Shown in pieces: positions 56,034 through 58,242 of a DNA stretch of 64,000 nt (position 1 is the stretch's first letter; each line of letters begins with the position of its first letter). The translations under genes and the position numbers were made by a program. The notes beneath the pieces were generated by a model that was not told where the DNA came from, did no database searches, and was given only the letters and a program-made list of their open reading frames with translations. This DNA comes from Blastocatellia bacterium (GTDB lineage: Bacteria > Acidobacteriota > Blastocatellia > UBA7656): contig CAVXWP010000012.1 in the NCBI GenBank assembly GCA_963765495.1, positions 128,001 to 192,000 of the forward strand, in the 5' to 3' direction.

Positions 56034-56732
56034 ATGAAAGCTTTCTTTACATCATTAGTGCTTTTGCTCGTCGTGACGCCGGCCGCGCTCGCTCGTCAAA
56101 ATAAAGAACGTGCCGACGAAGTGAAGCGGCTCAATCGCGCTACACAGGTCTTTTCGGAAATCATGCGCACGCCCGATAAGGGCATCCCCGAAGACCTGCT
56201 CGACAAGGCCGAATGCGTTGCCATAGTGCCGGGCTTGAAAAAAGGTGCGCTCGGGTTAGGCGGTCGCTACGGCAAGGGCGTCGTCACCTGCCGACAGGCA
56301 AACAGACGGTGGAGCGCGCCCTCTTTCCTTACGGTTGAAGGCGGCAGCGTGGGGTTTCAAATAGGCTTTGAGCAGGTGGATGTCGTTATGCTCATAATGA
56401 ACCGCACAGGAATGGAAAAACTGGTCGGTGACAAATTCACCGTAGGCGCAGACGCGTCGGCCGCTGCCGGTCCTGTCGGACGCCATACATCGGCCGGGAC
56501 AAACATAAGAATGGACGCGCAGATATTGACCTACTCGCGCGCGAAGGGGTTGTTTGCCGGTATTTCGCTTGACGGAGCCGTGGTCAAACAGGATAAGGAC
56601 GATAACCGCGATTTCTATGGCAGTGATGTAGATGCGCGGGCGATCCTCTTTGAGGCCAAAGTGCCTATGCCTGCCGAAGGACGCTCGCTCGCCGCTGCTC
56701 TTTCCCGCAACTCGCCTAGAAAGAAAAGATAA
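56034..56732 (+). CDS. lipid-binding SYLF (Ysc84) domain protein
   Basis: Signal peptide, WSAPSF, GGSVGFQIG, AAAGPVGR, YSRAKGLFAGISLDG. Confidence 0.93.
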   Translation: MKAFFTSLVLLLVVTPAALARQNKERADEVKRLNRATQVFSEIMRTPDKGIPEDLLDKAECVAIVPGLKKGALGLGGRYGKGVVTCRQANRRWSAPSFLTVEGGSVGFQIGFEQVDVVMLIMNRTGMEKLVGDKFTVGADASAAAGPVGRHTSAGTNIRMDAQILTYSRAKGLFAGISLDGAVVKQDKDDNRDFYGSDVDARAILFEAKVPMPAEGRSLAAALSRNSPRKKR

Positions 56733-56753
56733 AATCCGGTGCGCCATCCAAAG

Positions 56754-56789
56754 CGGATCTGAGATTTCAGATTTGAAATCTCAGATCCG
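56754..56789. repeat. 16-bp perfect hairpin made of ATCTGAG/ATTTCAG heptamers
   Basis: cggatctgagatttca-gatt-tgaaatctcagatccg; related single-arm array at 7821-7863. Confidence 0.8.
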
Positions 56790-56933
56790 TGGCCTTTCTT
56801 CACCTGCCTTTCGTTCAAATTAATCTGTAAAAATTAATCTGTAAAAGGATTTGACGCCGATTGCTCGCAGATCAAAAACTGAATAGTTCTGGGGAAAAAG
56901 CCGGATTGGGATACACACAAAGGAAGGATTTGC

Positions 56934-56962
56934 TTGACTTATCGAAGTCAAAGCAGTATTAT
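56934..56962 (+). promoter_or_regulatory. sigma70 promoter overlapped by a palindrome
   Basis: TTGACT-N17-TATTAT; TTGACTT-N4-AAGTCAA inverted repeat at 56934-56951. Confidence 0.7.
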
Positions 56963-56965
56963 GCT

Positions 56966-57094
56966 GCGGTGCGCCAGGTCGTCTAATCGACAAGCCCCCT
57001 TGAACATTCAGTAGCCCCCTTTCTGAATGTTCCATACCCCAGCGCACCGCCAAAACAGTACCGCTTTATGGCAGGAACATAAAGCGGTTTTGTT
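56966..57094 (+). ncRNA. putative structured small RNA with C-rich loops
   Basis: Promoter, 9-bp closing stem, two internal hairpins and an intrinsic terminator; no plausible ORF. Confidence 0.6.
57060..57094 (+). terminator. intrinsic terminator
   Basis: accgctttatg-N7-cataaagcggt followed by tttgtt. Confidence 0.75.
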
Positions 57095-57489
57095 CACGGG
57101 GGTAGTTTGTACCATACCTTTCAACAGGATGCAAGAAAAAAGTTAAAGTAACACTTGAAGAATCTGAAATAATCCCCCTGCCTTTTTGTTAAATCCTTAT
57201 TTTACTATAGTTTAAGCCTTAGCAGCACAGATGATTTTTTTTCTGTGACTTAAAGTATTTTCTCATTTTGCACTGGCTAACTGCTAAACGGAAAAGCGAT
57301 CAGGGCTGGACGCGGGAGGCGCTACAGAAAGATCGGCTCTGCTCGCCGAAATTCCGTTTCAGCTTTTGAGCCTTTTGATCGGTGTTTGGAGCCAAAGTGG
57401 TTTCTAATTTTCTGTATAATAAGAGTTTAGCGATTTAATCGCCTATAGGTTTAGGAAAGGCCGTTTTTCCTGATAACATAGGGGCGATC

Positions 57490-58242
57490 ATGGTATTGAC
57501 GGATGTAACAGACGAGTTGCTGATGATGTTCGATAGCGCCCGAACCGTGGCTTGTTTGACCGGGGCAGGAATATCGGCTGAAAGCGGAGTGCCTACGTTC
57601 AGAGGCGGCGGCGGGTCCGAGATATGGACATGGCGTGGCAGACCCGTGACCGAGCTCTCATCGGCTGAATTAATCGCGACCGACCCACGTCTGGTCTGGG
57701 AGTGGTTTGATTACCGGCGCGGGTTACTTAGCGATGTGACGCCAAATCCGGGTCATTTTGCGCTTGCCCAGTGGGAGCGGCGATTTGATGAATTCACGCT
57801 AATTACTCAAAACATTGATGATCTTCATAGAGAAGCCGGGAGTCTAAATCTGCTTGAGCTTCACGGCAACATCTGGCGCGCGCGCTGCCTGCGCTGTTCA
57901 AGCGTATTCGAGGCGAGGGAGTGTCCGCTTGAGCAGAACCCGCCGCTCTGCCTTGCCTGTGGTGGACCTGCCCGGCCCGATGTGGTGCTGTTTGGCGAAT
58001 TGTTGCCCTCGGGTGTATTTGAGCGCGCGGAGGAAGCCGCCTACAACGCGGACATCTTTTTTGTCATAGGCACATCCGCCGTGGTCTATCCGGCGGCAGG
58101 GCTTCCGATTGCCGCGAAGCAGGCCGGAGCGCGAGTGATCGAAGTCAACCCGGAGCTTACCGATATATCAGTGCTCGCGGATGTGAGTTTACTGGGTAAA
58201 GCCGGCGAGATATTGCCACGATTCATAAAGGAGCGAGGGTGA
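57490..58242 (+). CDS. cobB: NAD-dependent protein deacylase (sirtuin)
   Basis: TGAGISAESGVPTFRG, TQNIDDLH, ELHGN, CxxC..CxxC, RPDVVLFGE, IGTS. Confidence 0.95.
   Translation: MVLTDVTDELLMMFDSARTVACLTGAGISAESGVPTFRGGGGSEIWTWRGRPVTELSSAELIATDPRLVWEWFDYRRGLLSDVTPNPGHFALAQWERRFDEFTLITQNIDDLHREAGSLNLLELHGNIWRARCLRCSSVFEARECPLEQNPPLCLACGGPARPDVVLFGELLPSGVFERAEEAAYNADIFFVIGTSAVVYPAAGLPIAAKQAGARVIEVNPELTDISVLADVSLLGKAGEILPRFIKERG

Follow-up and report, generated by a model that had tools for sequence, protein, structure and literature searches.

A conserved small-RNA locus of one Blastocatellia family, with inward-facing promoter-like blocks on both strands and a core fold selected on the minus strand

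The locus at ~56934-57160 of the window (the whole 64-kb stretch of Blastocatellia DNA analyzed here) represents a previously uncatalogued, lineage-specific bacterial sRNA gene which matches no Rfam family. Its conservation, its fold and its promoter-like blocks make it almost certainly a real, conserved RNA gene, for which a convergent arrangement involving both strands is proposed. The structured RNA is probably the product of the minus strand, and the reading that we favor overall, with some reserve, is that of a convergent, overlapping sRNA pair in which this minus-strand RNA is accompanied by a plus-strand antisense RNA. The preliminary description of this DNA had proposed a small RNA read from the plus strand; that the locus is genuine, conserved and independently promoted was borne out, whereas the C-rich plus-strand RNA does not hold up as the structured effector, as the wobble pattern detailed below places selection on the core on the minus strand.

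The element is located in a gap of ~750 nt between an ORF ending at 56732 and an ORF starting at 57490, described earlier as gene-free. A cmscan search of the whole window on both strands against Rfam 15 returned no family at the gathering score (RsaE, 6C, Acido-1, Acido-Lenti-1, 6S, Y RNA and 5S included), in agreement with the earlier failure to recognize a known family, and at these scores the window contains no tRNA, riboswitch or known sRNA. A permissive search of positions 56700 to 57500 (E<=10) yielded just miRNA-hairpin and S15-leader noise. The spurious miRNA matches originate from a near-perfect 17-bp palindromic hairpin at 56753-56790, which directly follows the stop codon of the upstream SYLF/Ysc84-like ORF and is terminator-like on the plus strand. 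Within its own 7.3-Mb genome (17 contigs, 97.9% complete), the locus was found to be single-copy by blastn, and a covariance-model search likewise identified one copy. A dispersed repeat, which the preliminary description had named as an outcome that would undermine its claim, was rejected, as was a mobile element, on the basis of this copy number, being one here and one or two in relatives.

The distribution of the locus is that of a family-specific gene. Blastn detected it in 22 of 24 further members of its GTDB family and in no genome among 16 drawn from seven other families of the class, while the covariance model (R1) retrieved it from 31 of 34 sampled genomes of this one Blastocatellia family and, under stricter filters, from none of 116 genomes representing nine other families of the class. 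A search at E<=1 recovered nothing from the three family genomes without the RNA, nor from two sister-family genomes. A scan for the core pattern, applied to one genome per GTDB species, identified 48 loci, the titles of which read Blastocatellia bacterium (36 loci), Acidobacteriota or Acidobacteria (4), “uncultured Clostridia bacterium” (6), Chloracidobacterium sp. (1) and Candidatus Onstottus arcticum (1). The six metagenome-assembled genomes with Clostridia titles (L034, L038, L039, L048, L051 and L052) carry high-identity copies of this otherwise Blastocatellia-restricted RNA, and their titles are probably placeholders or reflect wrong taxonomy. A looser metagenome scan, defined by two motifs and a free spacer, produced at least 119 loci; among the 80 that were scored with the covariance model, five were true homologues, each scoring above 147 bits, and none was a divergent homologue. 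Second copies occur in a few genomes (L112, also listed as L064; L113; L114; and L115). One diverged second copy has a TTGACT-N18-TATAAA promoter of its own, and one has retained the minus-strand promoter block alone. In L112, positions 100-215 hold a circularly permuted copy, whose hairpin with a GCCAGGAAC loop flanks the core on the opposite side.

Both strands of the element fold with high stability. The plus strand has a minimum free energy of -55 kcal/mol (z -6.86), which none of 200 shuffles equaled; the minus strand, with a value of -62.2 kcal/mol (z -6.3 to -6.7), forms a fold at least as stable. The stretch retains 83-95% identity across genera (blastn), which places the fold beyond chance. 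The core, a three-way junction at 56966-57050 assigned to the minus strand from covariation and wobble pattern, is closed by helix P1 (56966-56978 with 57038-57050), in which six pairs have changed on both sides. The 9-bp stem previously noted at 56966-56974 (gcggtgcgc) and 57042-57050 (gcgcaccgc) is present as part of P1, and so are, inside it, the two hairpins that had been described, gtcg/cgac and gaacattcag/ctgaatgttc. The latter corresponds to P3 (57002-57011 with 57023-57032), which has no both-sided changes among orthologues and is compensated in paralogues. The small hairpin P2 (~56981-56991, minus strand) comprises three pairs, without covariation and in an ambiguous register. The motif which had drawn attention to the element is indeed repeated: it reads AAGGGGGCU on the minus strand and AGCCCCCTT on the plus strand, with one copy in the P3 loop (57013-57021) and the other in the P3/P2 junction (56993-57001). 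The ACCCC at 57036-57040, formerly listed as an additional free motif, is present, yet it constitutes the inner part of P1, where its pairs covary.

Outside the core, the 11-bp hairpin P4 (57060-57088), reported earlier as a terminator, is present and is followed on the plus strand by TTTGTT. Pairing of an A-tract with a U-tract (57053-57058 with 57090-57095) lengthens this helix, so that P4 as a whole occupies 57053-57095; its loop is invariant (GGCAGGAAC on the plus strand, GUUCCUGCC on the minus strand), it is terminator-like on both strands, and nine of its pairs, extension included, have changed on both sides.

Covariation was assessed on an alignment of 42 distinct orthologues (A2) against a specified structure, which was paired in 93.1% of cells. 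Fifteen pairs had changed on both sides, a number reached in 0 of 500 shuffles (shuffle mean 5.8), these counts being drawn from closely related orthologues and hence not independent events; sliding the partners reduced pairing from 93% to 34-46%. The paralogues are rebuilt to a greater extent. P1 is wholly replaced by CACGCUGC/GCAGCGUG in L112/L064 and by CGCGCUGG/CCAGCGCG in L115, while L113 displays a U-A swap in P1 and a P3 rebuilt as GGAAUAUU/AAUAUUCC, with the motif words kept. In L112, a hairpin with the same loop as P4 is found on the opposite side of the core.

The strand on which this structure has been selected is revealed by the nature of the departures from Watson-Crick pairing. 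Read on the plus strand, P1 comprises 474 Watson-Crick cells, 70 A.C or C.A cells, no G.U cell and 2 other cells (G.G), and P3 comprises 397 Watson-Crick cells, 23 A.C or C.A cells and neither G.U nor other cells. Across the two helices, 93 of the 95 non-Watson-Crick cells are consequently A.C on the plus strand, equivalent to G.U on the minus strand, and this one-sided pattern was observed at 12 or more different pairs. As the departures in P1 and P3 are A.C on the plus strand, i.e., G.U on the minus strand, it is on the minus strand that selection preserves the fold of the core. Pairing on that strand amounts to 99.3% for P1 and 100% for P3 (A3, 23 sequences), and to 86.8% and 94.5%, respectively, on the plus strand (A2, 42 sequences). 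In the window, P1 forms 13 continuous pairs on the minus strand; in the plus-strand reading, a 2x2 mismatch occupies its inner part in the majority of genomes. The wobble of P4 is mixed, with 48 G.U cells on the plus strand (31 of them at a single pair) versus 17 A.C cells, and its pairing is 96.6% on the plus strand versus 92.1% on the minus strand; owing to this mixed wobble and the higher plus-strand pairing, P4 has the appearance of a hairpin that serves both strands, the plus strand being favored. As a matter of method, a simple count of G.U versus A.C cells overturned a strand call that a textbook promoter and terminator had made seem obvious.

Those plus-strand signals are themselves conserved. 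The sigma-70-type promoter noted previously, TTGACT-N17-TATTAT at 56934-56962, directed into the element, matches the consensus at 10 of 12 positions, and its TTGAC and TA..AT positions are identical in 23 of 23 orthologues (A1), in contrast to the freely varying spacer of 17 nt. Paralogue L113 retains this promoter, which is degraded in paralogue L114. At the other end, P4 and the U-tail that follows it (UUUUGUUC in the predicted plus-strand RNA) would act as the intrinsic terminator of the plus-strand transcript and, read in the other direction, as the 5′ hairpin of the minus-strand transcript.

A second promoter-like block, at 57096-57160 and directed leftwards on the minus strand, is conserved, with conservation extending to ~57165. 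It comprises an UP-like T-rich stretch (57138-57151), a -35 element TTGCAT (57134-57129) invariant in 23 of 23 sequences, a 17-nt variable spacer without indels, the invariant TG of an extended -10 (57114-57113) and, one base on, the -10 hexamer TACAAA (57111-57106), of which the T, A, A and A positions are invariant. The overall pattern is TG, one base, TAYAAN (TGnTAnAA), followed 7-9 bases on by a conserved CCCGTAAAC that runs into P4. We read this block as an extended -10 promoter which would fire leftwards from a start at ~57096-57099. It is imperfect, in that its -35 element matches the consensus at three of six positions and its -10 element never ends in T, and it was missed by the promoter scan because of the three-of-six match of the -35 element. 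The second copy in genome G119 (L114) retains the block word for word, next to its degraded plus-strand promoter, and L113 possesses a diverged, recognizable version alongside its plus-strand promoter. An inward-facing promoter-like block is accordingly found on each strand, and the transcripts predicted from the sequence of these two blocks would overlap. A reading of the P4 loop and the TTGCAT block as sigma-54 elements, made by eye, was rejected on spacing. No consistent minus-strand terminator was identified to the left of the core: a hairpin plus U-run occurred within 400 nt in 11 of 37 loci, at scattered positions, and none was present in the window. The 3′ end of the minus-strand RNA would, therefore, need processing or another mechanism.

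Sampled words of the stretch are present in at least 17 runs recorded as RNA. Contigs were aligned from four runs belonging to four studies, all of them soil libraries, and span 56961-57151. The deep contigs lie within 56964-57088 and reach 20.7x and 102x (up to 102-123x) in library X8, 23.5x in X1 and 8-12x in X2. On the left, an Illumina read-1 adapter directly adjoins 56966 or 56973 in X1, X2 and X8; on the right, a read-2 adapter adjoins 57078 in X2 and X8, X1 having the left junction only. Adapters at both ends indicate inserts that are short and discrete, their read 1 lying on the plus strand. Ligation-based dUTP libraries yield a read 1 that is antisense to the RNA, and the abundant RNA would thus be the minus-strand one if X1, X2 and X8 are of the dUTP type; this is a supporting hint, which agrees with the wobble test, from contigs that by themselves show neither strand nor ends and from a kind of library that can hold DNA. 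The preliminary description had anticipated a plus-strand RNA of ~125 nt, and its expectation of a transcript is supported by the depth of these contigs, whereas the adapter orientation fits a minus-strand RNA, given dUTP-type libraries, and not the plus strand. Contigs of low depth (2-6.5x) extend to 57133-57151, one of them carrying the plus-strand promoter of a relative, and may represent DNA or read-through. Neither the uncovered parts of 56800-57300 nor the points at which contigs stop constitute evidence of transcript ends.

Taken as a convergent pair, the locus can be outlined as follows. The minus-strand RNA would measure ~130 nt (~57097 to ~56966) and consist of the 5′ hairpin P4 followed by the three-way junction closed by the 13-bp P1, from which two copies of AAGGGGGCU would be exposed, in the P3 loop and at the P3/P2 junction. 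Since the plus-strand promoter and terminator are conserved, a plus-strand transcript probably exists as well, as an antisense partner; it would start at ~56966-56970, end at the P4 terminator and be fully complementary to the minus-strand RNA, whose level or 3′ end it may control in cis. Transcription of both strands is, on balance, expected from this layout. The most likely role of the G-rich motifs would be to pair with, or act as decoys for, a C/U-rich ligand, which could be the antisense partner, some other RNA, the anti-Shine-Dalgarno (anti-SD) tail of 16S rRNA or a protein. If the convergent pair is real, it packs a compact sRNA and its antisense into ~230 bp.

The closest known case in layout appears to be the SdsR/RyeA (SraC) pair of E. 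coli and Salmonella, two sRNAs produced from opposite strands of one locus (PMC6610125). The pair resembles the present arrangement in that both RNAs have their own promoters, are convergent and are fully complementary over the shorter RNA, with one thought to check the other. It differs in belonging to another phylum and in having no sequence or structural likeness to the present locus (Rfam), at which transcription from the two strands is predicted on the basis of conservation.

The convergent pair has one rival of some weight, which we consider possible but appreciably less probable, namely that the functional RNA is the plus-strand transcript of ~125 nt (56966-57094), acting in trans, probably with the assistance of Hfq, and pairing through its two AGCCCCCUU copies with G-rich ribosome-binding sites, the minus-strand features being incidental or a minor antisense. 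In its favor is the textbook sRNA layout, with a near-consensus promoter of invariant hexamers and free spacer and an intrinsic terminator with a U-tract, plus-strand G.U wobbles and better plus-strand pairing. An Hfq gene is present (93.8 bits), and the hairpin and U-tail of the predicted plus-strand RNA could serve as an Hfq-type 3′ end, the minus-strand RNA being without a 3′ terminator. The left adapter junction at 56966, which coincides with the first base of P1, would also fit a sense-oriented library, but this requires every one of the three adapter-bearing libraries to belong to the less common sense-read type. Further weighing against the plus-strand model are the absence of G.U cells and the 93 A.C cells of P1 and P3, the mismatched inner P1 and paralogue L114, which has lost the plus-strand promoter and kept the minus-strand block.

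The targets that this model calls for were also sought. The exact complement of the plus-strand motif, AAGGGGGCT, is followed by a start codon at 0 of 34 genomic sites, which are scattered and mostly located inside ORFs. The shorter word AAGGGGG precedes a candidate start at 21 of 425 sites (4.9%), in favor of the model as far as it goes, as opposed to 143 of 759 (18.8%) for AAGGAGG and ~2% for two control words, and is, therefore, a weak ribosome-binding word. Around 2968 SD-supported starts, a crude set, C-rich and G-rich words showed no clear placement; a slight excess of AGCCCC at -60 to -40 (31 occurrences versus ~7-17 in the other bins of this set) was judged too weak. AGCCCCC is absent from the rRNA operons and the 49 tRNAs of the genome. 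The pairing of C-rich motifs with G-rich ribosome-binding sites, as put forward in the preliminary description, thus found no clear backing in these counts.

That proposal had been modeled on RNAs with which the locus can be compared. The 6C RNA of Actinobacteria is an sRNA with repeated C-rich motifs. Such motifs are likewise repeated in the RsaE/RoxS sRNAs of Firmicutes (PMC4409812, PMC6158497). In the plus-strand reading, the locus shares with these RNAs recurring C-runs, located in an apical loop and in an unpaired stretch, a promoter of its own and an intrinsic terminator. It differs from them in giving no cmscan match at E<=10, in having its helices selected on the opposite strand, in the lack of enrichment of its G-rich complements at ribosome-binding sites (within the crude start set) and in having two motif copies, the third (ACCCC) being paired. 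The motifs are unpaired on either strand; the selected strand, however, reads G-rich, and unpaired C-rich motifs are accordingly not found on the structured strand.

Within the preferred reading of a structured minus-strand RNA, the G-rich motifs raise the question of mimicry, since each copy of AAGGGGGCU resembles a Shine-Dalgarno sequence. The 16S rRNA gene, found in two copies with the Rfam SSU model, has a canonical tail, GGAUCACCUCCUUU, with which the minus-strand motifs pair at -11.0 and -10.3 kcal/mol, versus -20.2 kcal/mol for a full-length SD control. A function as an SD mimic is rather unlikely, and we hold as correspondingly doubtful the fuller scenario in which an abundant minus-strand RNA mimics ribosome-binding sites, pairs with the 16S anti-SD (or with a C-rich partner) and is silenced by its own convergent antisense, driven by a near-consensus promoter. 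Were it true, the locus would encode a self-contained sRNA/anti-sRNA switch on translation capacity in slow-growing soil Acidobacteria.

An RNA that sequesters CsrA/RsmA, the protein-sponge alternative of the preliminary description, was rejected. No CsrA gene (PF02599) was matched in the 97.9%-complete genome, control genomes having given matches in the same search, and multiple loop-borne GGA motifs are absent, the single GGA-type motif being an AGGA in the plus-strand P4 loop. The consensus of the CsrA site is GGA. The resemblance to CsrB/RsmZ lies in an abundant small RNA with copies of a purine-rich motif both in a loop and in single-stranded sequence, but the present locus has two repeats only, in a genome where no CsrA gene was found, and its motif is GGGGG instead of the GGA of the CsrA site.

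A cis-acting role, in which the minus-strand element would be a riboswitch-like or attenuator-type 5′ leader of a downstream minus-strand gene, is improbable. The three-way junction is aptamer-like in the invariance of its junction and loop bases, and ORF clustering across 38 loci identified, in 15 of them, a co-directional minus-strand ORF 194-436 nt to the left, which we take to be nuoC-like from its translated sequence and which could be the regulated gene. This ORF is, however, absent from the window genome, where the left neighbor is the convergent plus-strand gene ending at 56732, and in eight loci of another genus the left neighbors are similarly on the plus strand; PqqD-like or LuxR-type genes were found to the right in other loci. 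The four flanking proteins of the window had no tblastn match in the loci of 52 relatives, in a search run without a positive control. The element thus occupies no constant site upstream of a co-directional gene, and its unconserved neighbors favor a stand-alone gene over a leader, as do the conserved opposing promoter, which would sit between the element and the supposed regulated gene, and the deep RNA-library contigs, which are short and have adapters at both ends. The nuoC-like ORF (L010:1977-3044 and 14 other loci) has a long, low-complexity N-terminal extension rich in Pro, Ala and Lys.

The notion that no RNA gene exists here, the locus being instead a DNA-level element (regulator sites between two promoters) or a small protein gene, could draw on the promoter-like words on both flanks, a 39-aa ORF at 57027-57146 (plus strand) and a 19-codon ORF at 57008-56949 (minus strand) behind the first G-rich, SD-like motif, but is extremely unlikely in view of helices maintained by compensatory changes, sequence present at depth in RNA libraries and conservation without three-periodicity. 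The small ORFs on both strands were rejected separately, as one-base indels break their frames in several orthologues.

In the open-access full text, no regulatory small RNA was found to be characterized in Acidobacteria, and none to be described for Blastocatellia, which are common, mostly uncultured soil bacteria. The Acido-1 (RF01686) and Acido-Lenti-1 (RF01687) RNAs are orphan structured RNAs of Acidobacteria (PMC2864571). They have in common with the present locus their phylum and their status as orphan non-coding RNAs recognized by comparative genomics; neither model reaches its gathering score in the window or gives a match in the gap at E<=10, and the present locus is confined to one Blastocatellia family. 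An RNA that is nearly letter-for-letter conserved across genera and occurs at depth in soil RNA-library contigs of several studies offers a ready marker and an entry to RNA-based regulation in the phylum. Within the same gap, ~100 nt to the left of the plus-strand promoter, a 14-nt unit (TTAATCTGTAAAA-like) occurs as a direct tandem repeat at 56819-56847 and could be a regulator binding site.
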